Source of the DNA: Mytilus edulis
Taxonomy: Eukaryota
Length of the DNA stretch: 64,000 bases
Assembly: GCF_963676685.1 (NCBI RefSeq)
Contig: NC_092357.1
Coordinates: 14,446,001-14,510,000, forward strand
Reading direction: 5' to 3'
Position numbers and translations under genes: made by a program. Position 1 is the stretch's first letter. Every line of letters starts with the position of its first letter. Of the stretch, positions 5,368 through 64,000 are shown piece after piece. The notes beneath the pieces were generated by a model. That model searched no databases and was not told the DNA's origin. It was given only the letters and a program-made list of their open reading frames with translations.

Positions 5368-6879
5368 GTTTAGTTTAAACATATTTTATTTGCATAAGTA
5401 GCAAAAGGGATTGGACACAAGTTATAACAACATTAGAGACGTCCTCTCCCAATATAAATATAAACACAAAGTACATTAGATAATGGCGAAAAAAAGAAAA
5501 AAAAACATAGTAGTAATGCATGTAATACATACTTCAAACAAAAATTAGAAATAAAAAGAAAAAAAAAATACAATATAATAAGGAATAATAATGAAACAAC
5601 TGGACTGGAGTGAAAGGTTGTAAAGTAGAAATTTAGAACGTTAATTGATTGTTTTAAATCTTTGTGTTATTCTGATATAAGATTGTACGGACTCAAAAAT
5701 GTCTTTTTTTTGCTGAAAAGAAAGGTCACCGTCACCAGCCAACAGAAGCTCAATGGATATGGCATAACGTTCTAATTTAGAAAACAGTATTTCTCTTGCT
5801 TCGTTGTGAAAAGCGCACTCTAAAAAATAGTGTATACTATCCTCAACAGGGTGGCCACAGCTGCATGCCGGATTTGCTTTAATATTAACACGATGTAAAT
5901 CTGAATTTAAAGAACTGCACATATTTCTCAAACGTGTATGAATGATATTAAGTTTTCTATCCCCACAACTAAAATAGGAAGGTGGCTGTATCAATTTGGA
6001 CTTCATCTTTCGTTTAAAAATATTTATATTTTTGGACGTACGTATGTCGGGGGTAAGTCTATTCCATTCAATAGTAGTGGATGGGAAAAAGGATTTTCTA
6101 GTTATGTCTAGTCTATAACCGGGTACTACATAATTATTACTGTTTCGCAAATCGTAGTTAGATACTTGACCAACAAGCGGGGGCATTAAATCACAGAGAT
6201 AATCAGGGGCAGTCCCATTATGTAAAGAATAAAACATATTGAGCTTTCTGGATTTTCTTCTGTCTACAAGCAATTGCCAGCCAGTTTCAAAATATATAGC
6301 TTCCCGACTAGCAAACACGGGCAACCCAGTTACTAACCTCCCTGCTTCTAACTGAACATGTTCTAAATTGTCGGCTTCTTGTTGAGTACAACCATCCCAT
6401 AACTCACATGCATATTCCATAACGGGTCTTATAAAAGTTAAATATATACGAGCAAGATAATTTCTATTCAATACATATTTCATTTTTTTAAGAACATTTA
6501 ATCTTGTGCTTGCACACTTTAAAATATTTTCTATATGGGTATGGAATTTACCATTGGAATCAAAAGTAATCCCTAAGTGTTTATGACAGGAGACAAATTC
6601 TACTAATTGGTTTTGAAATTCTATTTCAATATCATCTGGGGAAGTATGGCAGGAGAATATCATAGCCTTTGTCTTATTAGGGTTAAAATTAATAAGCCAA
6701 TCTTTAGACCATACTGAAATTTGTTCTAAATCGCTGTTTAAGACTTCCTCTATAGTGTAAGGGTTATTGCTGGAATAAGAAAGAGATGTATCATCAGCAA
6801 ACAATCGAGTTAGACTTGTCAAATTATCAGCTATGTCATTTACATAAATAAGAAATAGTAGGGGACCTAATACGGAGCC
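5368..6879 (-). mobile_element. 5'-truncated CR1/L2-group non-LTR retrotransposon (RT C-terminal half, 3'UTR, short AAACT tail)
   Basis: Uninterrupted frame GSVLGPLLFLIYVNDIADNLTSLTRLFADD...HLGITFD...YACELWD...CSCGHPVEDSIHYFLEC to stop at 5641. The 3' end is aataaaatatgtttaaactaaact. Candidate TSD TTGTTA at 5362-5367 and 6880-6885. Confidence 0.9.
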
Positions 6880-7149
6880 TTGTTAATTGAATATAAAATG
6901 TTTAACGGATTGATGAGTTTGATCATTTACAAGTTTACTAAACCAATTAAATTCCCCAAACTCTCCCGGCGCACACATCTACTTAAGCTTGTTAAATTTG
7001 TGATTTGGCCAATTTTAGGGGAACTACCTAAATGTATAAATAGTAAGTCAATCAAACTTGGTATGCAGTTATATTACACATCTCAATGCTATGGAAATTG
7101 ATGATTGACTTTGAAACCTTGTCATAGTTTTATTACATGTTTTGCAGTG

Positions 7150-8261: not shown

Positions 8262-9830
8262 GTAATTCCAAACACATCTCATAGAAGAAGGTCTTAAACC
8301 TGAAACCTCATAAAGCTACTGGTCCACACTCAATACCATCCTGTTTACTAAAGGCAGTAGCAGAACTTGCTTCTATACTCACAGACACAGACCTATACCA
8401 AGCATCATTAAACACTGGCGAAGTCCCGCAAGATTGGAGAAATGCCCATGTAGTTCCCCTTTTCAAAAAAGACGAAAGGCACTTAGCATCTAATTACAGA
8501 CCAGTATCTCTAACTTCCATCACATCTTAGGTCTTAGAACATATTGTACATAGCAACATTATGGACCACATGGACAAAAATAAAATACTTACTGATGTAC
8601 AACACGGATTCCGCAAAAGACAATCTTGCGAAACCCAACTTAATACATTATAACCATCAACGACATTGAATCAAAACTGAAAAGCAGCAGCCAAGTAGAC
8701 ATCATCCTGATAGACTTTGGAAAAACTTTTGACAAGGTACAACATCACCGCCTGCTACACAAGCTGTAATACTATGGCGTAAATCCCAAAATCAGCAAAT
8801 GGATTTGCTACTTTCTACATAGCAGAAAGCAGAGCGTAATACTAGAGGAAGCTGCCTCCACGCAAGAACCAGTACTCTCTGGTGTACTCCACGGTACAGT
8901 CCTTGGACCATAACTGTTCCTGGTCTACATTAACGACATTCCAGAAACAGCATCAGAGACCAAATTATTCGCGGATGACAGCCTACTCTTTTGTACCATC
9001 ACCAACCAAATAGACAGTGGACTTCTCCAGAAAGACTTATCGGCAATGGGAGACTGGCAAAACAAATGGCAAATGAGTTTCAATCCAAAAACAAACCTTG
9101 TCATTAGAATATCACAAAAATACCATCCAGTGATACAAACAACATACAAACTATACGGTCACAATCTAGACAGAATCAAAGCTAGCAAATACCTTGTAGT
9201 GACCATCAGCAACAATCTAACCTCGGATAGACACATAGACAATACAGTAAGCAAAGGTAATAGATCTCTTTGATTTGTACTTAGAAATATATAAAAGGCT
9301 GTACAAAACCTTTAAAGGCATATAGTATGGACCCTAACGACCAAAAATAAAATCAAGGCAATTTAACAGAAAAGAGCAGCAAGATTTATGAATAACAACT
9401 ACACAGACCGAACACTTGGCTGTGTCACAAAAATGGTAAACACTATAAATTGACCTCGAAGAACGGAGGAAAACAAACAGACTATGCATGCCATTGAAGA
9501 TCCAGAATGATCTTATAGACAAAGACCATCATCAATATTTAACCCCAAATAATAACCGAACCAGAGGATAAAAACGGCTTCTACCAAGAGAGAACAAGTA
9601 CAGATGCCTACATTGTACGACCAATCTTTCTTTCAGAGGACCATCAGGGATTAGAACAACTTACAAACATCAGATTCATCAGCCAAAACAATTGGGAGAT
9701 TTAGAGCTGTCCTAAAGGCATGCTCTGAAAGGAAGTAGGCAACACCAGTTGTACATAATTTTAATTGTATTATATTGCGAACGTTTTAATTGTAAATAGC
9801 CAAGAGAACTGTGTTGCCCAACAATTTACG
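8262..9830 (+). mobile_element. Decayed CR1-group LINE reverse transcriptase fragment
   Basis: Recognisable motifs EVPQDWRNAHVVPLFKK, NYRPVSLTS, QHGFRKRQSCETQL, DFGKTFDKVQH, GVLHGTVLGP*LFLVYINDIP, KLFADD, with multiple stops and frameshifts. Confidence 0.88.
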
Positions 9831-28992: not shown

Positions 28993-30196
28993 TCAGACAT
29001 TACTATTGTCATCGCTGACCTGATTAGCATGTTTAAATAATGGTTTGTTTCTATAATGGTTCCATAGGTGTAAAACTATTTCTGACACTAAAACATCATT
29101 AGCGTTTTTACCTACAAGTCTCAAAACAAAAATGCCATCTTGTCGCAAATACTGCTCAGCGAATTTGACGGCCATTTTCTTGTCTAATTCTGATTTGTAA
29201 CATTCATTAATCCTGAGAAATTTTTTCAAATAACGAATTCGGTGTTGTCTAAATATCATAGTATAACACCATACTAAGAAATTCGCCGAACTTAAAATAG
29301 ACACAAATACAAGCCAAAACCAGATAAATATAAAAATCTTCTCATTAAAAAGATTTATTGGTAGTACACATTGTACAGTGTACTGTTGGAGTGTAGCGAG
29401 TTTACGAATTTTAAAATCACATAGTGTCACCCTTGGGAACCTTGCTGATTCGTCCCATTCTTCACCACTGGCCAGATGGCTTAATACTTCAAGTCCATAT
29501 GCGTTGTAATTTGTCCCTAGAAATTCATTTAAAATGAATAACTGTCCAATAGCATTCGACATGTATAGTAATTTAATAAACATATATATGGTGACAAGAT
29601 AATTTCCATAACGTTTTCCACATACTATACAACAGTATTTTGAAATAGTTTGACGCAAGCGTATAAAACATCCGGATCTATATTCACGTGCATTTTCCAA
29701 CCATCTGTCCATGTAACGTACTATGTGTTTTATAGTTCGTTCCCTATCATCTGGAGAAATATACTGTGTTTCCGCTGCAAGTGTGACTATTTTATCCAAA
29801 TTGACACCAGCCGACGCTGTTAAAATTCTCCACATAATACATGGGACCTTAAACAACAAGGCTTGGAATAACAAGATCATCGGAACCCACTGGTAGTATG
29901 TAATCTCGCTTTCATATCTCGCGTGATTGTACTTCGGAATATCTTTGTCAATATGGACGTAGTATGTATTGGATATCCAACATACATTGTTAGTGTAGTC
30001 AACCATAGACTCCTTGAATTCAGCCGGACACCAGCAGTGGATTGGCTCGCCCACATACTGCTTCGTACTAACAACAATGGTAAAAATGATGAAAATTATA
30101 GTCGTGTATAAATGATTTAACCTATCGATCCAGTCGTCATCGTAACGACCTTTTAACCTTGCATATGTGGCGAAGCTTCCGAGGACACTGTCAAGC
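28993..30196 (-). CDS. inx: Innexin (invertebrate gap-junction/pannexin family), main coding exon
   Basis: The ORF track protein (28993..30054) extends upstream in frame by 47 codons (LDSVLGSFATYARLKGRYDDDWIDRLNHLYTTIIFIIFTIVVSTKQY) to a pyrimidine-rich acceptor ttttatctttttAG|G at 30198-30197. Innexin signatures: DDWIDRL, QYVGEPIHCWCP, NVCW, YYQWVP, FPRVTLCDF, QCVLPINLFNEKIFIFIWFW; four hydrophobic segments; two Cys pairs in the extracellular loops. Confidence 0.96.
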
Positions 30197-32839
30197 CTAA
30201 AAAGATAAAAGAAAATGAAAAATTAATAAAATTGACTCTGAAATAGTTTAATGCAAATACTGGTATAACAAGTCGTGAAAGAAAGTACGTTTGAGTAAAG
30301 AGAAAATTCATATGCTATACTGGATATCTGCTTCACAGATATACATGTATTTTCAGTGGAGGTAGGGTAGCATGATACATACAGTCTCTAGGTATATGTG
30401 CATCCATGCGTGGAGCTTCGTATTGTACAGTAACTATAAGACATAATAACCTTCTCATGAAGTTCGATGATTACATTTTTTTTTTAAACAGCAAAACAAA
30501 AACAAAAAACAAAACACAACGAATATGTGTAGACTTATGCTATATATTATATTTATACATGATATATGCCAACATTTACAACGATCGGGTGAACAAGAAT
30601 ACTTAGAGCTAACACAATTCTTTTCTTTTTGCGTATTCGATGGATAATTAACTCAAAATAATACCAGCCTAGTTCATGGAGATTGCTGGTGATATCCTGC
30701 ATGCCAGATAGAAGATACATTACATTATTTAACAGACTGTGAATCTCCATCCTACTACAATTGGCGTTTTTAACATTTCAGATTCGAGCGTAGCTGACGA
30801 GTCGTTCAAAGACGAAACGCGCGTCTTGCGTACAACATTTTAATCGTTGTGTATATGATGCTTTTATCTTATAATACGTCAGCAATGATGTGCAATGCAC
30901 TATGTATGAAATTAAAAGCTTATTAATCATTTAACAATGAACAAAAGGTTTGATATGCAATTTGAATGCTCAGAACCACAACTTTTAGTAGTTGTTTTTA
31001 TTGTCGGTAGACAAGTAATAAAGTAATAGTGTTATTACATTTCAATGCTAATGAACAAAAAAGTACAGAATATGAAACGAGATCAATTTCCGTGCACTGA
31101 AACAACATCCTCTGTTAATGTCATGCGCAGCAATAGACATGCAAATTTAGTTAAATGAAAGACATCAGGTAATGAACCAGAGGAAGCATTATTCTTGTTG
31201 ATGAAAATTTAATATGGCGTTAACATGCATCGCATGTCCAGGGTGATTAAAATGTTTAATACTGCTATATTATAAGACATATCAATAAACACTTCCATGA
31301 TCTAGACCAGTTATGATGGCGGGATACAGTTGCGTCATCTAAAGTTGATGTTTAGGTAACTGTAAAACATGTTAATTAATTAATTATTTATTGTTGAACA
31401 ACTAATGAACTTTTAATACAATGAGACTTTTTTTTAATCTCTGGTTAACCAGTATGGAGTGTGCAAACTAGTTATGTTGGTGTTTGAGGTGAACAGCAGG
31501 AGATCATATACAAAATATCATTTTTGCATGATAGAAATCAATTTTCTATTGACAATTAATGTTATCATATTTTGACAGGTAAAAGTTATTGTATGATTCA
31601 ATAACATGGTATGACTAACCTACTGAGTCTGGAAAAAATATCATTTATCGGTTATTCAAAGTTGGATATCAAAAAGGGTTTCTGGCAATGTTACAGCTAC
31701 CTCTAATATCTTGTGTTTACAATTGTAAATTATTGGTTTGATTTTAAATAGACCATAGAAAATTGAAAACTGTGTCTTGAACGTAGAGTACAAACTCTAA
31801 TAGCCAATATATTCACATGTAAGGGCCTGTAGAACATATATAGCATGCATACCAAGTATAAATCTCAATGTTTATATCTTTGTCATGCGTTTAGTCAACA
31901 AAAAATAAATATTAGAAATGTATTTTTATATTAACAATTACTGTTAAAGAAATGTTTAAGGAAGTCCTTTTCTCTTTCCATATCTATTGTCGTGCTACTC
32001 AATATATAACAAATCAGAATTGGTTTGTAGTTTTGTAAGGTCTTTCCCTTGTTGCATCTAAAGCGTCAATTCTCCTTATTGTGCCCCATTTTATATAAAA
32101 CATGTTTGAATAGCAATTTTTGCCACAATGAAAAGAAATCCATTGAGATCAATAAAAGAGAATATTAGATAAAGAGTTAGCAAACATTATTGTCAATTTC
32201 TATTATTAATACCTAAATTCCAAATACTATTTGTGTTTGCTAAATATTGGTCTATTGTTTTGACGAGTGATTTATTACTAGTTGTATACTATTGATACAC
32301 AATCTAAAATTCTATAGAAAAATACTCCATGAATGTCAAAATTTAAATTTGCAATAAGAATGTTTTGATTTGATACGGGGATCTTCAATTACAATGGAAA
32401 TAATGACTTCGGTAAACATCGTCAAGAATCGCTAAACATCGGTTTACAATACTTGTACAAAATCCTATTATAGTTTTATTCAGCTTCAATTATTTTTGTT
32501 ATTTCTAAATTTTTGCAAAATCATGATTTTTATAACTTGCAATTAACCCACATGTTTTTATTTATTCAAGTTATCTAATGTAATTTAGAAATCGTCAATC
32601 ATAGCATCTGCAGATTCAACAAAGATAAGAGTTATTGAACTGAAAAAAGTTAATAGAAAATAGTGTTAGATTATTCTAATAATGTATTGCCATGAATGTT
32701 ACATGATGTATATATTGTTTTTTTCTCTATTTAATACGTTTGTTTAAATATGTTAGTTAAATGTGCACTTATCAAATGTATGTATTACATTTATTCTTTC
32801 AATCAGTGACATTTTTCTAATGAAAACGGTATCATGGTA

Positions 32840-50225: not shown

Positions 50226-53200
50226 ACTGACTGCATTCAAGCTAACAAGAAACAAGAAAAAAAATATGTAAACAAATAATCAATAGATATGATCGAAACA
50301 TAACCTTGCAAGTTATAAACGCATGTCCATTAGGAAAAATATAGCGTAAACGCCATGGTCATTCGACGTTTTTATTTATTACTACTTGTATTTAATCATG
50401 ATGGATCGCCATCTAATGCAACCACCATCACAGAGACAAATCATTTTATCGATTAACACTTGCTTTGGAGTGTTTTGGATAAGTAGCCATATTTGTGCTA
50501 ATTGTTTGTTATTAGAACCGTGTCGTATATCATTGTTTTAGGAATGTTTTGGAGAAACATGTGATAGGTCGAATGATTTAAATGAAACATTAAATCAACC
50601 AGATAATTATCAAGAGGCATATATGTTTTAATGAGGCTCTTTATGTCTAAGTTCATATTTCATGTTTCTCTATTCCTTATATTCTTTATGTTAACCAATA
50701 TTCCCTATTCTTTATACTTCAAAAAATTGGTTTATGGTAAATTCCACCATTTCCATTCTCAAATTTATTCTTCAATCTGTTATTTACTATGTTTTTTCTA
50801 ACATTCTCTATTCTTTATGGTTCAGCAATACGTTATTTTCAGTACTTTTATTCGATGTTTTCTCTATACTTTACCCCCCCTCCAACCAATACCTCATCAC
50901 CACCCTCACCCATCCCTAGTTCTGTAAATCCCTATAGAAACCTTATGCTATCGGTGTGCCATCATTATCAACTCCTTTATCGCAAGACTACACGATTTAA
51001 ATTATAAAAACATTCATCCTTTATAATTGCAATGGCACAAAACAGAAACCATACAAATAAGACATCGAGAGGTCAATATAAGACTTTCAACAATAGACAA
51101 ATGTATGCAAAAAGTTAATCACCCCGAGTGTCGAACAGTTGTGAATAAATTGAACAGATAGTAGTACTATGGAATATTTGTGAGCACACCAACTCATCCT
51201 AATGACAGAACATTCAGACTTAATATAAGACAACCACTGACAAAGTTTGTGATTTGGGACGGTGTGGTGGGGATGAGTTATAGTTGATTTGATACTGAAT
51301 CTTACTATCTCAATTTATATCTTGATACTTAAATTATGTCGCTAGAAACATCAAAACAAGGAAAATGTATAGTCAATTGATGTTTTTAAGATTAATTGAA
51401 ATTTAAAATATATTTCAGCTTGAAATTATCTTATTCAGATGACAACTGTAATTTTTCACCCTTAAACAATACATTATATGTAAAAAGTATAAGTCAAACA
51501 TTTTAAAATTGCATAAAATATAAAATCGAATAATAGGATAAGAGGGTCTCTAGTATTGCAATTTTGTTTGAGTCTTGATTCTTTAAAAAAAACTTAAACA
51601 TTGTTATAGCACATGTTGTCCTATTTAACATGCATTTCCATAACTAGCCTTCGTACACTTATATATCCATTTTACAGTATGAACATTTTAATCTAAACAT
51701 GTTAAGCTAAAACTATAAGTCTATGAAAACAGACAAAATAATAACCAAAAGCCTATAAAACACTATACAGAAACAAACATTCCTACTAGCATCTGAGCTG
51801 AATGGGAAGGGTTCAACAGTTTTTGTTTAGTGACGTTAAAGCATTTTCAAAGTCTGATTAAAGTTCAGAGTTTTGCTATCTATTTTATGTAAAATATTTA
51901 AATAGAGATAAGAGATAATGTTAACATCCTTACCTTAATTTTTAATTCTACAATGACTACTTAATATGCAAGGTTTGTTTCATTTTCTTAAAGATTATGT
52001 GAATTGAGTCTCGCCTTAAACCCTAGTGGAGTACCAAAAGGAAAATTCAATGAGACAACTCAAAACATGCCAAAGTATGGTATGAAAAACATGTCACAGT
52101 TATTAATAAAATCGAGAATGGAAATGGGGAATGTGTCAAAAAGACAACAACCCGACCATAGAGCAGACAACAGTCGAAGGCCACCAATGGGTCTTCAGTG
52201 CAACGAGAAACTCCCGCACCCGGAGGAGAACTTCAGCTGGACCCTAAACAAGTATGTATACTAGTATATTAAGTATGTTGTTGAATGCCAAGGTTATATC
52301 TAAGCAGTATCTTTGTATCCCAGATGGCAAGTAAAAAATAGTTGCTCTTTGCGACCCACTAGAGGCTTAATAAAAAACTTGTAGACATTATGTTTACATA
52401 CAGAACAGGATAAGACAACTGAGGGAGATGACCTTTGTTGAACTCGGCATGAAATTAATGTGGTTTTTTTATTTGTTGATAAACATGGAACAAACATATA
52501 GACATTGACCGATTAATTTCTTAATTTATAGCAACAGCACACACAATACTTAATTCACAAATCAGGGTGAAAGCATGTCAGAAATCTGGTATAGTATACT
52601 AAATATTGGTACCAAAATATGTAAAGTAATTGTTTTAAAAATTTGACCTAGATTAAGGGGTACCAAAAGTAGTAGTCTAAGAAAAAGATGTTCAAAATAA
52701 AAACTGTTTCACTCTATTATTGTAAAATAAATGCTCATATTTAACAACAAATGATTTGTAATCTCAAAAATAAAACGATTTTAATTGTCATGATTTTCTG
52801 CAGTTGGTACAAACTACATTTCAGATGATAAGAAGACTAGAAATTGTTTAAAGCCTTTCGAAACCAAAGTTATTCTATATCATTCTAAAAATAATACCGT
52901 TAAGTGTTTCATTCCTATTTAATGGTATGGTCAGATCATTTACAAAAAGAAAAGTCAAGTCAAATACTATTGAAAAAAAGCAAAGTCGGAAAAATGTGTT
53001 TTGCAAATTTACACTCGTTTTATGTATTAACAAATTATGCCAACATAAACACTTTTAAAAAACACGTCTCTGTTTTATGCAATTGCAATTTTAACAATCT
53101 TCATTGAGGTTAAATGATTATTTGTTTAAATCAAGCACAGTTTAAGTGGGCAAATTTGGTTTCATCAGTTGGTTTAAGTCCCTTAATATACTATGGGTTT

Positions 53201-53754
53201 TATGTCACAAGTCAATTTCAAAGTTGGTTATTGAATGTAAATATAACCATTTTAAAATTAAGTCCTGTAGTTCAACCACTCATTACAATAACAACGTTTA
53301 AAAAATAATTATGGATATATAAATATATATCTCAAATGCACTCGTTTATTAAAAATTAATTGCAATATGAATGCGTGAAATAGCAAACATGTTATTTTAA
53401 TAATACTATGTTTTAAATATCGCTAGATGTTAATTGCTATGAAAAACGTTATAACAATAACTCGCGGATGATTTTAGACAAAATATAATATCTATAAATA
53501 TTTACAGTAGAAAAATAATAAATTGAGAAAGACAAAAATATATTTTCAAGATCAAATACAAATTATGTGTGATTGTTTATAATGAATTATTGGCTGTTAT
53601 TTGTGATACATGTTAATCGATGTAAACGTTGAATAAAGCTGCTATGCTACAGAATCAACGATAGATAATCAATGACAATTTCATATATAGCGTCCATATT
53701 AGAAAAACCAGGGAAGAAAAATCATAAGTAAAAAAATATTATAACAAAACTTAC

Positions 53755-53759
53755 ATCAT
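53755..53759 (-). CDS. inx: Innexin alternative first exon 1b, coding part (ATG AT); 5'UTR probably extends to ~54150
   Basis: Minus strand reads gacgaa ATG AT|GTAAGT, a perfect donor in phase 2. Joining to the G at 30196 gives ATG ATG CTT GAC = MMLDSVLG, a typical short innexin N-terminus. Intron 30197..53754 (23,558 bp); product 402 aa. Confidence 0.62.
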
Positions 53760-54148
53760 TTCGTCTTTAGGAATAGGTTTATACGCAAATTTCTTTCGAA
53801 AAAGAAAACATATCATTTCTAATTCAAATCCCTAGATGCAAATAAATCTCCACCGCCAATATCCTGCAACTCATTCTTAACTTCTATAATTATTCCTATA
53901 ACAATCCTGCTGCCTTTACTGAACAAAATCTGCCATACTTTATTCCGAAGGTATGTTCTTCCGAAGGTATGTTCCGAAGGTAGCAATCGATGCTTCTACC
54001 TTGTTCACCTATTATAAACTGGAATATATTTACATTCACCGGTTCCATTGCTATCGTTGGACATCAATAATTTAAACAGAGGATCGGAGAACGTGTAAGT
54101 AAATAGTAAAGGGTTATTATTGTATGCAGACCTGATGAATAGCGTTAG

Positions 54149-54310
54149 AACTGATAAATAATCAAAATCAATTATTCAGCAATAGTTTCGAATTTTTAAT
54201 GGCGGGAAAGCGTATTATGATCTCGTTGAATCATAATGAATTAGAAAGAGATGTTGCGTCATTTTACTAGATTGTATGGCAATAGTGCATTAGACAAAAC
54301 AACCACGTGG
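54149..54310 (-). promoter_or_regulatory. Candidate core promoter of innexin exon 1b
   Basis: TCAGTT initiator-like motif on the minus strand at 54154..54149, about 390 nt upstream of the exon 1b ATG. TGACGCAA (CRE/ATF-like) near 54255 and a CACGTG E-box near 54305 lie further upstream. Short motifs only. Confidence 0.3.
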
Positions 54311-56389
54311 GTTAATGTAAGAAATGTATAAGGAATGGTTTAATCATACTATGAGGTACACTCCTAATTCAAAATAAATGCTAATTAATACGTGAAGAAA
54401 AAATAATTTGTGAAAATGTAGTAAACATTTGATTAAAGGTCAATGAATTACGTAGTATTGAGATTTATTCCTTGTCATTTAAATCTTGTTTTTAATGTTA
54501 CAAGACTCCTGAGGCAAGGTTGAGCTTAATGATTTTTTGTTGATCTTTTCAGGTTTATAAATATTTGTTGTGATGCTCTTAAATGTTTTATGAGTTACTT
54601 TGAGACTTGCGCGTGCTGGATATAGGTTTATTATAGATGCACATGTTTATTTATAAAGTATTTATCATACTGACAGTTAATATAAAAACAAGAAGATGTG
54701 GTAGTATGATTGCCATTGAGACAACTCACCACACGAGACCAAATGACACAGAAAAAAGCAACTATAGGTCACCGTACGTTTTTTTATGATACTATTAGTA
54801 ATTTCTTTTTTCAGTTCACTAATTTGATATCTACTATGAAGATAAGAGAAGCGAAGAGTTCCCAAGATTTTAATCTGGAGTATGTTAGAGGCCATGGAAA
54901 GAAGGTCTTCATTTCTATGTGTTTTATTGTCTATGCTTTTGTTTCTCCAGTCTTGTTTTGGGAAATTAATCACTTTTTTTGTTTATGTCGTTCCATTTAT
55001 GCTTTTGACAACATTATTTAAGTTAATCAGATCCATTTTAAATTTAGATCAGAATGAGTTCTTTCTATATCGTCAAAAAACATAAGGTATTCTATATATA
55101 CATAATATTGACAGATTTTATTGAAAAGAAAGAATGATTATTCCTCACTCAGGTATATTTTAAGCTGTTGATATCTTCAAAACAGAGCAGAACTGAAGTG
55201 AGAAAAATCATTAGAACATTTATCATTCAATGTAGCTACTGAAACTTTTCTTGGCAGATTAATGTCAATTTAGGTGAGACAAATATATCTTAATGTGCAT
55301 CATATAGTAATGGATTTAAAAGAAAACATAAACAAGTCGATAGCCAATCATGTATATATTGGAGCTTGGTACAAAAATATGGTAATTCTTATCTTTTTCC
55401 GTCAAAATCTAACCAACCAAAAAGAAGCAAAAAAAAAACCAACCGCACACATGATGAATAAAACACGCTTAACAGTTTGACTTGTTCTTCTCAGTCTTCT
55501 TGGGAGCTCGGTGAAACTTTCCAAACGATATTTAACTTTGGTAACATTGTTCTGTTAACTTCGTGTTAACTCGGCACATTTCGGTTCTCCTTCTAACGAA
55601 TAGACGGAGAGTAGCGGATTCTCCCGAGAATTGCCGATTGTGTAATTATAGATGCTCCGGAAAAGTAATGTTCAAGTCATATTTTGCACGTCATATTGAT
55701 TCATATTATTAGTACAAGTATTTCACCTTAACGCTTGCAAAATTATCATGTACCTTCAGCATGATCTAGAAGTTGCTAGGCACTTTTTCGTGTAATTTCA
55801 AAATGACAGGCCATTTAAATATGTCACTTAAAGCTTTGAAATTTTGAAATGTTTCATCAAGTGGCGCCGAAGTACTGAAAATATGCTTAAAAACATGAAA
55901 TATTCTTTTTATCATCAATACTTAAAATTCTATTAATTTTCGTTTGAAGTAAATAAAATGATTATAATTTCAGAAAATTTTATTTATAACCACACATGGA
56001 CATATTTCAAAGAATATTTGAAGTTTTCATGTTTGGTTTTAAACATATGTTGTTTCTATTTAAGGCCCTTCGTGTGAGATAACTTTCATGATGGAAAAGA
56101 TTATAGAAAATAGCTGGAAGACTTAAAACTTTATCATTATACACAGTAATTAAATCTAAGGCAAACAATGTGCATGTAAGGAGATGTAAAAATAACACTA
56201 CAAGGACAAAATATAGTCTTCCACAATATAACCGGTGAACTAAAACAAATAAGCGAGTCTATAAAATCTGTAAATAATCAAACAGTTGATCATGTTGATA
56301 CCAAACCTCAACAGGTAACAAAACTTCTTCAAAAAAAGCAAAAACATTTAGAAAGTCACAAAATAACCGCTAACGGGATTCTAAACATC

Positions 56390-56474
56390 AACAAGATTTT
56401 ATTTTTTACGAAATTGTTTTTACTTTACAGCAACAAGATTTTATTTTTTACGAAATGTTTTTACTTTACAGCAA
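56390..56474. repeat. ~43-bp direct tandem duplication
   Basis: caacaagattttattttttacgaaat(t)gtttttactttacagcaa x2. Confidence 0.85.
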
Positions 56475-56675
56475 TCAATATAGAGTACTTGCCGCACTCA
56501 TAAAGATTGTCATGCATTTCAAACAGTGACGTCATTTCCGCTGTTCTGAATATCAAATTTACATTTGTTTTATTTCTCTTTAATCATTATAAAATACTTT
56601 GATATTTTATCTCAGTATACAATATGTTAAAATAAAGAACGGACTTTAATCTGTGGTTTCAAATTTTTTACAATG

Positions 56676-56901
56676 AGGGCCCTCATGGGGTTTTTGATTA
56701 TGTGATTACTTGGCCGTTTTTTTAATGATTATTTGATTATTAAGCCAAATATTTCATGATTATTTGATTACCTAGGACTGTATTTTTAGTTTATGATTAT
56801 TTGATTACTAAAGATAAATAAATATTTAATGATTATGTGATTATATTGGCAAAAAAATGGTGATTATGTGATTACTAGGACCCCCCCCCATGAGGGGCCT
56901 C
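56676..56901. mobile_element. Small TIR element with GATTA-type tandem interior and 17-bp flanking direct repeat
   Basis: Termini (g)agggccctcatgggg / ccccatgaggggcctc. tcaaattttttacaatg at 56659-56675 and 56902-56918. Interior tgattatttgatta repeats. Confidence 0.85.
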
Positions 56902-57221
56902 TCAAATTTTTTACAATGTTTGCTTAGAATCTTTTTGTAAAAGTTCTGAAATAGCAAAGCAAAGAAATGAAACGAGACACGGTTTGTGATATTCTATAGG
57001 AAACAGCGTATTTCAGAAATCTACTTTAAATTTCAAATGCAACATTCAGATATATAAAGTTGATATTATGCAGTTCTTTTATTTCAAATTTAATGGCGAT
57101 ATCGGATTTCAAAATCTAAATATCGCATTTGAAATTGTATTACAATGACGCAAATAAGATTTAAACGTTTATGTCGTACCTTTTATGGATTACTAAATCA
57201 ATTGTATCATATATAGAAATA

Positions 57222-57545
57222 AAAAGATGCGGTATGAGAGTCAATGAAACAACTCACCATCCAAGTCGCAATGCATAAAAGTTAACAATATTATAGTTAA
57301 TTATAGGTCAAAGTACGATCTTTAACACGGAAACTTGACTCACACCGAACAGCAAGCTCTAAAGGGCCCAAAAATAACTAGTTTAAAAAAAATCAAACAG
57401 GAAAGATCAACGGTCTAATCTATATAAACAAAATCGAGAAACACTTATGAACCAAATCAACAAATGACTGAGGAACAGGCTCCTGACTATGTGGAGCGGG
57501 TTTTAACGTTCTAACAGGTGTCAACCTTCACCCTAACCTGAAACA
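57222..57545 (+). repeat. Dispersed repeat family (agatgtggtatgattgccaatgagacaactctcca...)
   Basis: Related copies at about 180-495(+), 5040-5235(-), 7333-7432(-), 20480-20570(+) and 54690-54780(+). Confidence 0.75.
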
Positions 57546-59534
57546 ATAAAATGGCTTTAACAAGATAAAAAAAAAAGATATCTATATATATATGCTTTTA
57601 AGTAGAGAGTACAAAATCACGTTTAAAATGGAAATGTATACAGACAAGCAAGCAAGAAAAGGCATATGGTATATACTTATTTTAAACTGTAAGTTAAAGT
57701 CGATATTTGATTTGCATACCTGCCAACTGTCACTATTTGCGGGGGATTTCCCCAATGGAGGCTCTCAAATGGAAATTTTGAAAGAGCTATTTGGTCCACA
57801 ATTTTAAACAAAGCAATTAATTTGCAATGGCTATGGACTTGTTAAAGTATGAAGAAGCCAAAAAACAACATTAAAATATATTTTAAGGCCCTCTTGAAGG
57901 TTTTGTAGAATTATATCAGCCATCTGGCACGTAAAACCCCCATGAGCATTTTGAAAAATTGACAGGTATTGGTTATTTATGTCGACGGTGTTGCTGTCTC
58001 ATTGACCTATACCGACCTTTTGTTTTGTTGTTTATATTTAGACATGAGAAACTAACCTCTCGAAACCGGAACTGGCTTCAGGTGCTTTAAAGGGGGATAA
58101 GCAGATAAGGCTTCGCATCCGAAATCCATCGTATAAAGGTTGTAAAGTCATTTATTTACGTTAAAAGCTTTTTGCGAAGGATGGTTTACTTTATAAGTTA
58201 GTCTTAACTAAAAGTTTTCGTTTCTGAACTTTTTAATATTAGGGAAATGTTTCACTATTATTTTTCGCCGTTATTATCTATTCTTTATAGATAATACGTG
58301 CACCATCATTTTCCTTGGTGATAAGTTCGCCCAATTTTCTCTATTTCTTTATTTTTCAATATTTCAATATGTTTTATCTTTTCTGTAAACTTCATTCTCA
58401 CCCTCTAACTATGCTTTATAAATTAATGTCAAATAGGTATAAATACAGAAAGTTATTAATAGAGAACAGAAGCAGACGAGAATGGACAATAAAGGTGGAC
58501 AATCAGAACAAAAAAAAAAGATTATGTCAACTATCGAATTCTAAAAAAAAGATGAAGACAAAATTAAAAATTAAAAGAAATGACAAATGTGTATAGCTCT
58601 GTGCAAGAACGCGACTTTTTAAAAAAAAAACAATTACATTTCTATCCCCCATGGTATAAATCTCAACAAAATTAGTTCATATTATTCTAAATTTTTTTAT
58701 TTTGACAGTGCTGTCAACTAATATTATATCGGCTGACACAAAACTCGATATCATTTTGTTCTTGCCTGACATCACTAGATTAAACAAAAGTGATATGAGA
58801 CGTGTTTGAGTTATTAAACTATTAGTACAGTGTACCTTTTCAAGTTTCTCAGACCTCCTGACAAGGGTAATGAAATTTGGCAAAATTGCCAAGTGAACAT
58901 CAATTTGACTTCACAATTACAGTGATGCTGTAGACATAAGTGATCACCTTATAAGCCTCCTTGTGTTATAATTGCCATTACAAGAATCGGTCTGGTTCAA
59001 ACATTAAAAACTTGCATTGGCATTACGAAAGAGAAATTATTAGGGACTTTCCGGTTTGAATTTTCCTCGGAGTTCAGAATTTTTGTGATTTTACTTTTTA
59101 TACAGATTGCAGTGACCTGTTTTAAAAAATATAAAATGTAGCCTTCAAGAGTTCAGCCTTCTGTGCATGTGTCAAAATACGAGCTAGAATATCCTACCAA
59201 ACATCTAAAAAAAACTTTTTATATGTTGCAATCTACTAAAAATTGTTTTCCCATATATATTTTACTAACATATTCATTTTTCTGTTGGTAATTATTTACT
59301 ATTCATTTTTGGTGTGATCCCAACAGACCTTTCATGTAAATGAAGTGTAAAACTTGACAGCCATCTTTAGTCATGCGTGAACAAAAATAGAATCTTCATG
59401 TACAATTACGGATACGTTGTCATTGATTATTAAAAGTGGATTCTATTTCAATTAACCATATTAACTCCTGTCCTAAACGTGTAAACAAATCGATGATGAT
59501 TTTAATTATTTATGCAGATGTCCTTTTGGTAGTC

Positions 59535-59828
59535 AATGCAAGGACAACTTAAGCTTCAGAATAACATTGATTACACAACTTATTCATTGAAACGTTCTAT
59601 TATGGTTATGATAGCACCGACCATTTGTAGTTAAAAATGCAAGGACAACTTAAGCTTCAGAATAACATTGATTACACAACTTGGTCATTGAAAAGTTTTA
59701 TTATGGTTATGATAGCACTGACCATTTCTTGTAGTTAATGCAAGGACAACGTAAGCTTCAGATTAACATCGATTACACAACTTGGTCATTGAAACGCTTT
59801 ATTACGGTTATGATAGCAGCCGACCAAT
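59535..59828. repeat. ~100-bp tandem repeat, 3 copies
   Basis: aatgcaaggacaacttaagcttcagaataacattgattacacaact... x3. Confidence 0.9.
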
Positions 59829-61057
59829 GGTCGATAAAACAATGATCTTCCGACGCAGAACTATAAAGCGTTCCGTTTATTGTAAACGTCTGTTTACATT
59901 TTTTAATATCAATTTTTAACGATGCCTCGTAGACATATAAATCAATTAATATAATTTCTCTTTTGATAAGAGTTGTAAACATGAAAATTCAATATACAGA
60001 CCTTCGACGTCATTTTTTTTGGTTGTTTTTCAATTTCATTTAACATATCGTTTACATTAGTCATAAAAAGGAATACCGAGGGAAATAATTTGATAATTAA
60101 GTAAATGAAAGTTCAAATACAGTAGCATCAAATATAAGATAGACTTTACTTAGTACAAAAATGTTAAGCGTCAAAATATAGAGTTTTAACATGTTTATCC
60201 TCAGCATAACCATTAGTACTTTACAAATATTTACATGCAAAGAAAGCTTTCAAACTAAACACTGATTTAATAACAAAAGCCTGACTTTTAATTCTTCATT
60301 TTCAAATATTTTTTAAAACGTTTTATTTTAATAAAATGTATGCTCTAATTCGAATAATTCAGTCTCTCTCCGTGATCGACTATCTCACTCACAATGTATA
60401 ACCATGGAAGAGGGCAGCGTTATATAACAAATGCATTATTCATGTATATTTTTTTCATGATCTCAAACCATTGAAAACATACCCGCAACCATTCGAAAAA
60501 CAAAGAAATACAAGTTCGGATGAATCTTCTTTGCATCAATAATTTCGATATTCTCGGGACGTATTGATAGAATTAAACAACAATTAACATGACCTAATTC
60601 CAATCTTTTATGACGATTGCAACAATAATAAAATCTTCAGGACAGAAAAAAGGAAATTGTTCAGCGGATAAGACCAATAAAATCGACAAAGTTTTAATTA
60701 CTGTAAAGTACATCATTTTGTCTGGGACGAGATCGTTACTTCTTATGCAGCATTCGAGAAAAAAGTAAAATACCAAACATAACGAAAAATTCAAAACGGA
60801 AATTTCCTAAACTAATGGCAAAATCAAAAACTCAAACACATCAAACGAATGGATAACAACTGGCAAAGGAGAGTTTGGACGATATCACCTTTTCTATTAT
60901 CGGCGAATTTTTGCTTGTAAAATCATGCACAATGTTCAACATATGTATCGAAAATTCTAATGCTACTCTCAGATTGAAACAAAATTTCTAAAACATCGTA
61001 TTGTAATACTATCAAAAAATTAAATTAGAATATTTTCAAATGTAAGAACTGATTTTT

Positions 61058-61310
61058 GGAACGATGTTCATGTGTTTGGCTGTTTTGATTGGTCCAAATC
61101 ATCATTTACAAGGCATTATGGGAACGATGATGTTGGTTTTTTTTCGATTCTGATTGGTCCAAAGCATCATTTACAAGGCATTATGGGAACGATGATGGGT
61201 TATTTTTTTCCATTCTGATTGGTCCAAAGCAAAATTTACAAGGCATTATGGGAACAATGCTGGTTTTTAATCGTTTAAAATGATCCAAATCAGCATTTGC
61301 AAGGCAATGA
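61058..61310. repeat. ~64-bp tandem repeat, about 4 copies
   Basis: tgattggtccaaa.catcatttacaaggcattatgggaacgatg repeated. Confidence 0.88.
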
Positions 61311-62076
61311 TTGATGGAATAACGCTTGATTTGGCATTATTTCAAGGACTCAATACGATATAAGACCCTAGTATGTGCGATGACGCTGGGGAGGCAAACA
61401 TCAATCAATCATTTACAATGACGCTGGATTATCACAAAGTATGAGGACGCAAATATTTAGACTGGTCAGTTCTTCAATTTGTCGTCCAGCACATGTTGTG
61501 CCGTTAGATCTATAGCGGTGACGTATTTAAATTAACCAGTAAGAAAAGAGTGACAACGATAGATGTTTTAGGTTCAGTTTAAATGGCACATTGGCAGATA
61601 ATTACGTTAATCAAAAGACATTCTAACAGAAATCAATGAACAATGGCCAATAAATTGATGCCTCTGTTGATAATAAAAGGCTACCTTCAAAATAAAAAAT
61701 CTATTAACATTGTAACTTCAAAAGACAGAACAAAGGGTTTTTATTAAATCGGATAAAATTTCACTGGTTAATTAAAAAACACATCAAATGGTTATTAATA
61801 TTGTAACTAGAAGTTATGGTCAATATTTTGTAATGACATATATTAGTTGCTTTTGAATTTATGCATAAGAATCTATCAGGAAAACATCTGTAATTTCTTC
61901 TTCTTTTTTTATCTTTCAAAATTTAAAGAAAAATATGAAATATGCTAAACAAAATATATGTTTCACTTGATTCTTCGTGAATAACTTTTAGGAAGAAAAG
62001 GAAATATGGGGTATACGTCAGTGAGACAGCAACTGAACGACAAAGACAACTTAGTTTATCAGATATCGACTCTTAC

Positions 62077-62261
62077 CCGTCCGGTAAAAAGTAATCCATT
62101 AAAGGGGCTTGCAAATCGCCCATTGGTATTTCATGACCGGAAGGGTGGGAAGGATCTGACCCGCCACCACCTCCCGCTCCATCCTGGTGGCGACGCTCGT
62201 TGTGACGGTGATGGTGGTGGTGTCGACCCCCACCCCCTCCGCCTCCTTTTTTCCCAGGCAT
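62077..62261 (-). CDS. inx: Innexin alternative first exon 1a encoding a Gly/His-rich N-terminal extension
   Basis: GC-rich island. ATG at 62261 follows an in-frame TAA (62270-62268). Reads MPGKKGGGGGGGRHHHHHRHNERRHQDGAGGGGGSDPSHPSGHEIPMGDLQAPLMDYFLPD then GG|GTAAGA (donor at 62076, phase 2). GG+G(30196) = Gly, in frame with LDSVLG. Intron 31,880 bp; product 462 aa. Confidence 0.68.
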
Positions 62262-64000
62262 CACTATTTAGTATTAATCCAACTTCTAGACTTACATTTG
62301 TTATGGAGATTTCAGAATTTGTAGATCCAGGAAGTAATCCTAAATTCAAACATCCGAAAAGCTTCTCTAGAACTGAAAACCAGACTCTTGTCCCTAAATT
62401 TGTTTCACGTTTTCATAATACAGCTCTTAATCCTTTCTGAATGTTAAATTGTTTCTGTTACACTTTGAAACATAAATGCAAAATCTTTGAAAACAGTTCC
62501 AGTAAATTTGTGTTAAAACATTCATGACTTGCCTTCGTTGAGTGTTTGCCCATACAGATCAAAATGAGAAAGTGTCTTTATCCAGTAAAACACTTTCCAG
62601 ACGCCGTTCCTATTTCTCTAATAAAACTGGGTTACACTGTTTTTGTATAAGATATATGCCCAAGTTAATAGTTAAAAACAGATCCAGTACTAACAGTTAC
62701 TCTCAGAAAGACTTTCGGGTGAGGACATGTGCAAGACCTCAAGAAGAAGATCTTATATGGACGTCAAAAAATGCATAAATAATTGATACATTTATCATCA
62801 CCCAAGGGAGCGCTCATTTTATTCAATTATTCGTAACCCCTTGGTACATTTTACTAAAGAATATCTCCCCACTATGTATAAGAGATCAATTGGCGATGAT
62901 AAACAAAGAGTTATGAATTATATAATAAATCAGCAATAATTATTGTGCATATTAGGTGGAAATTTTCTTTATATTGTTTCAGTAAACGCCGACATCCCCG
63001 CGCGTATTCTTAAATGAGCACCTATAGAACCAGATTACTCTCTTAGGCAGGTTACATATTAATAACTGGTTAATTGTGACTAATGATAATTATTTTGTTT
63101 GTTTGATAAAAATGCAGATGTCCTCAAAGGGACACCGTCAGTGCAATTAGCCAAAATTTGCACATTCGGGAACTCTCTAGGGTTATTTCCTTCACAAATG
63201 TCGCGTTAATACGTGAATACATTCTCGTCATCAAATTACATGTACAAATCTAACGCACGAATATTTCGTCTCACGAAAACCAAAAGTGACCACTATGTCT
63301 CAACTTAGAATCTGCAACGGTAAGTTATCTTTTATTTAAGTTAAAAATACCTGTAAGATTGAAAGCCAAAAAATAAATCACAAAGCAGGAAATATATTTT
63401 TTTACAATTTTATAAAATGGCTGCATTAAACTGTTTTTGTAGACAGAAAAAGGGTTGAGAAGATATAATGTAAAAAGGTCTTTTTTTGTTTAATGTTTTA
63501 CAAACTCAATGTTTTCTAGTATCTGTCATTTTTTTTATACGCGTACCTTTTACATTTTATTTGGCCAATTGATAATGTTCAAATTCTTGTTTTTCAATCG
63601 CATACAACCAAGAACAAAAACATGTTGTTTAGTTCAATTTTACGTTCAACATTAATTTAGCAATATCAAGAAATTTACTGTTTTCAAAAGCAATTATGGC
63701 CAATTTGTTTTGTATTTTAGACAAAACTTGATTTTTTTTAAATATCCTTTCATGGCTGTAATGTATCTCTATTGACAACGTATTGTAAAATATAAATTCT
63801 ATTAATCAAATTAACATTCACTGAATTATAAATTTAGCATTACTCTAATTGTAATAAGCAAACCATATGTTACTATAAAGGGATCTAGGTCTCCGTAAAT
63901 TCCCACCAATTCAAAAATAACTTAAAATTAAAACCCTTACAGTCAAGATTATTAAAAAAAATTAACAGAAATAAAACGCTAACCTTTGCATTGGTTTAAA

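Follow-up and report, generated by a model that had tools for sequence, protein, structure and literature searches.

Background

The rectification and pH sensing of invertebrate gap junctions are largely open questions (PMC7455501, PMC5146279). The closest described system for the locus analyzed here is UNC-7 of C. elegans, a single innexin gene in which alternative 5′ exons place many different N-termini in front of a shared core and in which these N-terminal heads carry oppositely charged clusters. Ten UNC-7 isoforms falling into six N-terminal groups have been described, with longer heads tending toward stronger voltage dependence; rectification requires the HKK and DDD clusters, and homotypic channels of each of the six isoform groups, whose N-termini reach 168 residues, were conducting (PMC7455501). 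The Drosophila isoforms ShakB(L) and ShakB(N+16) likewise differ at the N-terminal end of one innexin, in their case up to TM2 (PMC7455501). Nearer to the present gene, RefSeq contains sets of ‘innexin unc-9-like’ models, numbered X1–X8 in oysters and reaching X9 in Haliotis, X11 in Biomphalaria and X13 in Octopus sinensis, which have the same core and splice point and, in oysters and gastropods, include His-rich long forms. N-terminal isoforms of UNC-7 and ShakB, and His-rich long forms of this orthologue as automatic RefSeq models, are, therefore, already known. No paper describing the His-rich long isoforms was found in a search of literature outside subscription journals, and the accessible text of a Lymnaea paper (PMC7052179) gave no match for isoform or histidine.

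The mussel locus resembles UNC-7 in its general plan and departs from it in several respects. Each mussel head is one exon joined directly to a single-exon core, the exons extend over 100 kb, two of them encode His-rich heads, several classes turn up repeatedly within the molluscs, and the gene has a candidate readthrough tail; the mussel isoforms are known from gene models and sequence, whereas those of UNC-7 are known from channel recordings. Unlike the ShakB isoforms, all mussel forms share the N-terminal helix and every TM helix. The RefSeq sets, in turn, are automatic models in which a Mytilus long form is absent among the members listed, and the named models stop at the first stop codon without a readthrough tail.

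Results and discussion

An innexin core in a single exon

The window, meaning the whole 64,000-nucleotide stretch of Mytilus edulis DNA that was analyzed, encodes an innexin whose N-terminal helix, four TM helices and C-terminus are all carried by one exon (Table 1). This core matches PF00876 (E 4e-104, 348.8 bits against a curated cut-off of 25) and INX-6 (5h1q; E 4.6e-51) and is identical at 399 of 400 residues to Mytilus trossulus XP_063410968 and XP_063410969, while structure models of the innexin give a four-helix bundle with pLDDT under 50 for the N-terminal helix. The next best of the 32 innexin matches in genome G000 has 53% identity, and full-length orthologues across bivalves, gastropods, octopus and chiton are 78–94% identical. 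In a tree of 32 rows, from which 4 of 36 had been dropped as being without the anchor motif, 16 of the 17 LDSVLG-type rows formed one short-branched group (92/89) and the chiton row was unplaced. Three equally pyrimidine-rich YAG sites occur in 30196–62076, and a long frame follows only the one at 30196 (400 codons, compared with 2 and 10). Seven innexin core exons are clustered on one strand of contig C14 of the same genome at 46.39–46.66 Mb, and C14 carries most of the 32 matches.

Table 1 Features of the innexin locus; positions without a prefix are those of the window
Feature	Position	Strand	Evidence or description
Candidate readthrough extension, CTA ACC..., 53 codons to ETEV, then TAA	28831..28992	-	Homologous tails
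Shared exon, whole innexin core to DNSNV and stop TGA	28993..30196	-	PF00876, M. trossulus identity
Shared splice acceptor, T-rich tract	30197..30216	-	Only strong acceptor opening a long frame
Exon A, second alternative first coding exon	53755..53816	-	Identical to M. trossulus isoform X1 N-terminus
Phase-2 splice donor GTAAGA of exon B	62071..62076	-	Donor score, frame
Exon B, Gly/His-rich alternative first coding exon	62077..62261	-	Basic/His N-part; acidic, conserved junction-proximal part
AT/GTAAGT, Met-only exon end or start-stop uORF (ATG TAA)	62290..62297	-	Sequence only
Exon C, short His-run head	L005:125-94	-	Identical to M. trossulus X2
Exon D, MK...MH class	L007:6674-6598	-	Clam/gastropod class, 11 proteins among members listed
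Fifth first-exon candidate, MHSSLGR	L001:2586-2567	-	Loosely like MHSLTR class

Sequence, frame and donor of exon B

The first-pass annotation had singled out a GC-rich patch upstream of the innexin as a first exon encoding a Gly/His-rich N-terminus, and its description of the patch holds in each respect. Measured in 120-nt windows across the whole 64 kb, this is the strongest of four GC patches (0.66, compared with 0.52–0.55 for the others), its frame ends CGG/GTAAGA (the slash marks the exon end) in the phase that the innexin acceptor requires, and the G7, HHHHHRH and G5 runs are all present in the peptide. The exon comprises 185 nt, namely an ATG start, 61 codons and a final GG, which together with the first G past the acceptor at 30196 makes the junction codon Gly62, in frame with LDSVLGSFATY; the intron between them is 31,880 nt long and runs from GTAAGA to TTTTTAG. 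An in-frame TAA lies 9 nt ahead of the ATG, so the frame begins at that ATG. By a rough donor matrix of our own, the donor ranks first of 602 ATG/phase-2 candidates in window positions 30197–64000 and fourth of 2159 over 113.8 kb.

An origin from a microsatellite or other repeat was considered and rejected. TRF detected no tandem repeat in exon B, protein and DNA searches of G000 found it in single copy (the DNA search skips simple repeats), four different Gly codons make up G7, and GC by codon position is 0.75/0.51/0.48, highest at position 1. The codon-position GC and the mixed Gly codons have the look of coding sequence. Neither Pfam nor the ESM Atlas returned anything for the exon B head.

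Shorter products might also start from this region. The AT/GTAAGT motif lies 36 nt upstream of the exon B ATG, similar AT/GTAAG sites are found at 33772-33771 (-) and L001:2837-2836 (-), and such sites could yield a Met-only isoform like that of oyster and scallop. Within exon B, internal Met codons occur at 62120 and 62096 (-); only the second is present in P0228, the homologous frame described below, and leaky scanning could therefore give a short form.

A probable cassette of first coding exons

Exon B is very likely an alternative first exon of this innexin, as had been proposed, but it does not stand alone, the locus having at least four. First exons were sought by matching mollusc N-termini to ATG/phase-2 candidates; the sequence scanned was the window plus a further 80 kb outside it. 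Among the cluster members listed, 91 proteins carry N-termini ahead of LDSVLGSF, in about 80 distinct sequences, and the matching identified at least three first coding exons besides exon B, spread over 100 kb. Exon A encodes 21 residues including the junction Met. Exon C, 74 kb from the acceptor, encodes a short His-run head that Mytilus shares with Potamilus, Mya and Physella. Exon D, 100 kb from the acceptor, is a moderate match (scores 27–38), and the fifth candidate has the top donor score of the 2159; neither occurs in the Mytilus models listed. Several alternative 5′ coding exons thus lead to one acceptor ahead of TM1, two of them in M. trossulus models and two with mollusc homologues, the isoforms that support the cassette being automatic gene models. 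Exon B lies inside the innexin locus, since it is flanked by two first exons of M. trossulus models. The first exons would presumably have their own promoters and yield cell-specific isoforms.

Conservation of the exon B head

Homologous sequence was found in another genome (Logan, ENA) as P0228, a 60-residue ORF which has the G7 and a His run, keeps 23 of the last 24 residues and terminates at the same LPDG as exon B. P0228 appears to be a genomic frame running into the donor of exon B and gives no evidence on the junction. The junction is represented in gene models of other bivalves, where the heads of the oyster X1 models (three species) and of Solemya end in GEYVLPEG, GEYGLPEG and AEYVVPDG. 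When the last 10 residues of exon B were compared with the oyster and Solemya junction tails, exon B ranked first of 3307 open GT sites (27.3; the next site scored 17.0). Local scores of exon B against the three oyster heads were equaled by 0, 0 and 1 of 1000 shuffles, and the score against the Solemya head by 12 of 1000. A fusion of the head to LDSVLGSF, for which the first-pass annotation suggested looking in bivalves, is present as these homologous heads in oyster and Solemya gene models, but not among the Mytilus proteins listed.

Outside these groups the match is looser. With gastropod junction tails exon B ranked only 529 of 3307 and with clam tails 75, and between 0 and 298 of 1000 shuffles reached the score of exon B against gastropod and clam heads (Nucella 250). 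Because these ranks and shuffle tests are weak, it is architecture that supports orthology to heads outside oysters and Solemya: the gastropod and clam heads are long, end in [DEQ]G and run from basic to acidic. The head in gastropod gene models is a looser His-rich one. Heads of at least 50 residues ending in [DEQ]G were present in 18 of the 91 proteins, and 15 of these 18 contain 14–29% His (members listed, some rows being near-duplicates). The remaining three, from Mercenaria, Ruditapes and Mactra, have 2–6% His and are rich in Arg/Lys instead, so that His enrichment does not extend to all orthologous long heads.

Searches for the head itself gave little. No exact copy of the exon B ORF was present in the sequence collection searched, none of 18 longer candidate proteins scored for the head in a search of representatives (the isoforms of this gene share one 90% cluster), and in a 90-member cluster the 15 listed members include no Mytilus protein with the exon B head. 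Taken as a sequence, exon B is a constrained coding exon.

Transcript evidence in Mytilus

Four of the 24 runs listed were aligned over 53000–63200; exon B had a depth of 0 in all four, and such dips in filtered data are no evidence of silence. None of the runs listed is recorded as an indexed RNA holder. The 62077–30196 junction was seen in none of the four, of which the raw-read run placed only 9 reads. Exon A was itself seen in only one of the four runs; a 185-nt contig of run X17 matches 53754–53909 without difference and departs from the stretch at the exon A donor. That exon B is silent in this species, or belongs to another transcript, would fit the lack of coverage in every run and the absence of a long form among the Mytilus models listed. 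This explanation is highly improbable, however, given an intact frame, a strong donor and a conserved peptide, a position between two annotated first exons, and no competing strong acceptor with a long frame. We infer instead, with high confidence, that exon B is real and is spliced to the core at 30196 in M. edulis. Separately, short stretches at about 56.7, 57.7, 59.05 and 60.8 kb within 54500–61200 attract many diverged contigs; these stretches are dispersed repeats present in other transcripts.

How the head may act

The first-pass annotation had compared the head with the N-terminal isoforms of both UNC-7 and ShakB and pointed to the pore funnel; the likeness to UNC-7 stands, and that to ShakB does not. 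In INX-6, residues 1–6 are disordered and the N-termini build an 18 Å funnel (PMC5146279). Residue 23 of INX-6 aligns with core residue 19, which puts the ordered funnel within the shared exon, so that each head extends the protein ahead of the pore-lining helix. A ShakB-type exchange of exons through TM2 was not found, the core being one exon from 30196 to 28993. The long isoform with a disordered, His-rich head that had been envisaged very likely does have a long, mostly disordered N-terminus, as the oyster long-isoform model has residues 1–5 and 7–76 under pLDDT 50 and a low-confidence helix just before the junction, but its His-rich character is not general, with His scarce in three of the 18 heads.

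Charge is more uniform. All 15 long heads measured carry net positive charge over their first two thirds and net negative charge over the final third, whether or not His is counted, and oppositely charged clusters are, therefore, present although the UNC-7 triplets HKK and DDD themselves are absent. As 15 of 15 heads run from basic to acidic and three clam heads are His-poor, gating by charge of the kind described for UNC-7 is favored over a dedicated sensor of pH or metal. With exon B, a predicted-disordered segment, basic and then acidic, would precede a pore-lining helix that itself stays the same. By analogy with the C. elegans UNC-7 heads, this segment likely adjusts rectification or voltage gating, and His protonation may modify the effect without being its core. 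Our analysis leans, if only slightly, toward electrostatic effects on gating as the main role of the head. Two observations on UNC-7 count against a gating role: UNC-7S and UNC-7L gated alike, and the longest UNC-7 without Met121 gave no current in oocytes (PMC2694797).

The second of these observations bears on whether the head might serve something other than gating, such as trafficking, plaque clustering, partner binding or a role as a non-conducting modifier subunit in mixed channels. UNC-7L(M121L) gave no current by itself, and a modifying action on shorter subunits was suggested for it (PMC2694797). The exon B head is a low-complexity, charge-blocked sequence, and eight such heads amount to about 51 kDa, compared with a pore of 18–30 Å (PMC5146279); they are too big for the pore, so that the head would have to be cytoplasmic or displace the funnel. 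The homotypic conduction of all six UNC-7 isoform groups (PMC7455501) argues the other way, and we consider a non-gating head rather unlikely.

The His content invites a further alternative, in which the head is a dedicated pH sensor whose protonation during anaerobic acidosis closes or opens the isoform. Nine of the 62 head residues are His, compared with 2.5% in the core, and the computed net charge of the head changes from -1.5 at pH 7.5 to +3.5 at pH 6.0. The conservation of a separate short His-run exon in four genera (exon C) points in the same direction, as does the finding that none of 73 paralogous proteins has at least five His in an N-terminal extension, and the mechanism of innexin pH sensing is stated to be unclarified (PMC5146279). 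The Arg/Lys-rich heads of Mercenaria, Ruditapes and Mactra speak against this, however, and innexins in general are described as pH-sensitive (PMC5146279), so that a His head may not be needed. A dedicated pH sensor is, in our judgment, unlikely.

Runs of His are able to bind Zn, Cu and Ni ions, and the runs here (H5-R-H in exon B, H7 in P0228 and H6 in oysters) might make the channel metal-regulated or a metal buffer, as the first-pass annotation had also suggested. The His spacing varies freely between lineages, however, the heads contain no Cys, those of the clams are almost without His, and the run would lie in the cytoplasm, a compartment with very little free Zn or Cu. Metal binding is accordingly a very unlikely role, and electrostatic gating remains the reading we prefer.

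A candidate stop-codon readthrough tail

Beyond the core, the innexin stop lies in the context TGA CTA ACC, a UGA followed by CUA, which on its own is associated with 1.5% readthrough; CUAG gives more (PMC4132726). The full CUAG is not present here, the sequence being CUAA. On the same strand of the window, 18 of 1370 TGA triplets are followed by CTA, and the chance of 53 open codons past the stop is about 0.008 at local composition. Where the mussel gene has its stop, oyster records, the clam-cluster record P0163 and a third record, P0229, have a W followed by a homologous tail. The oyster tail (seven records) scored 88, compared with -12 ± 9 for shuffles, none of 2000 of which reached it, and that of P0229 was the best of three matches in the representative search. 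These tails share a Leu start, a helix-like first segment, an NG motif and an ET[EA]V end. The W would imply that the gene caller translated a TGA under a different code. In a model of the extended form, residues 399–418 are a helix with pLDDT near 50 and the remainder is disordered.

Explanations other than readthrough were considered. A splice around the stop is rejected because it would delete tail codons 1–13, which are conserved best. RNA editing of the stop may occur in Mytilus. No stable RNA fold was found past the stop (z -0.9). The conservation points to stop-codon readthrough, and it is likely that the tail is real and that TGA-CTA readthrough gives a C-terminally extended form. Readthrough would exchange the last residues SNV for TEV, both of which fit the class I PDZ pattern. 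In its UGA followed by CUA, its conserved in-frame extension and its nature as a membrane protein, the mussel innexin resembles the readthrough cases AQP4, OPRL1, OPRK1 and MAPK10 (PMC4132726), from which it differs in having A rather than G as the fourth base, in its longer tail (53 residues) and in being known by sequence. PMC5100048 does not mention innexins in its text or in two of its three supplements, a weak negative because gene lists may use identifiers.

Among paralogous innexin loci, 7 of 15 end in TGA and one of the 15 (L009) continues with CTAG. At L009:937-845 (-), near 5.344 Mb of contig C14, this closest paralogue reads GEDV TGA CTAG followed by 29 codons to STV and is a further candidate for readthrough, here with the complete motif. 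P0030, a homologue of this GEDV paralogue, has a different continuation past the stop.

Implications for a single channel gene

Taken together, the two ends of the protein raise a wider reading, in which one ultra-conserved molluscan innexin is a combinatorial channel gene with a first-exon cassette as old as the bivalve-gastropod split, including two His-rich proton-sensing gates, and a readthrough PDZ-ligand switch. We regard this reading as doubtful; were it true, a cell would be able to adjust the pH sensitivity, the rectification and the synaptic anchoring of its electrical synapses one by one from one locus. If the readthrough tail is indeed conserved, it would give this gap-junction protein a second isoform layer. 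The isoforms form a natural controlled series with an identical core and heads of 1 to about 130 residues, and since some lineages have His-rich heads and others Arg/Lys-rich ones, charge and protonation should be separable in oocyte pairs.

Published work on the slug Limax bears on where the orthologue is expressed. In its accessible parts, the Limax innexin paper reports variants for innexins 9 and 11 only and does not mention histidine. The INX9x1–x4 variants have a common reverse primer and different forward primers, and innexin 9 was considered as the orthologue and rejected, as primers and CDS length indicate innexin 8: the circINX08 primers match the core at 10 of 10 and 8 of 8 residues, and the INX8 CDS of 1275 nt has the length of the 424-residue gastropod isoform. 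Limax innexin 8 is, therefore, probably the orthologue of the mussel gene, and this orthologue is probably expressed in the slug CNS. The gastropod CNS is also where identified electrical synapses are studied.

Elsewhere in the window, reverse-transcriptase-like frames are present at 5641-6882 (-) and 8914-9273 (+), which we take, from their motifs, to belong to LINE-type elements.
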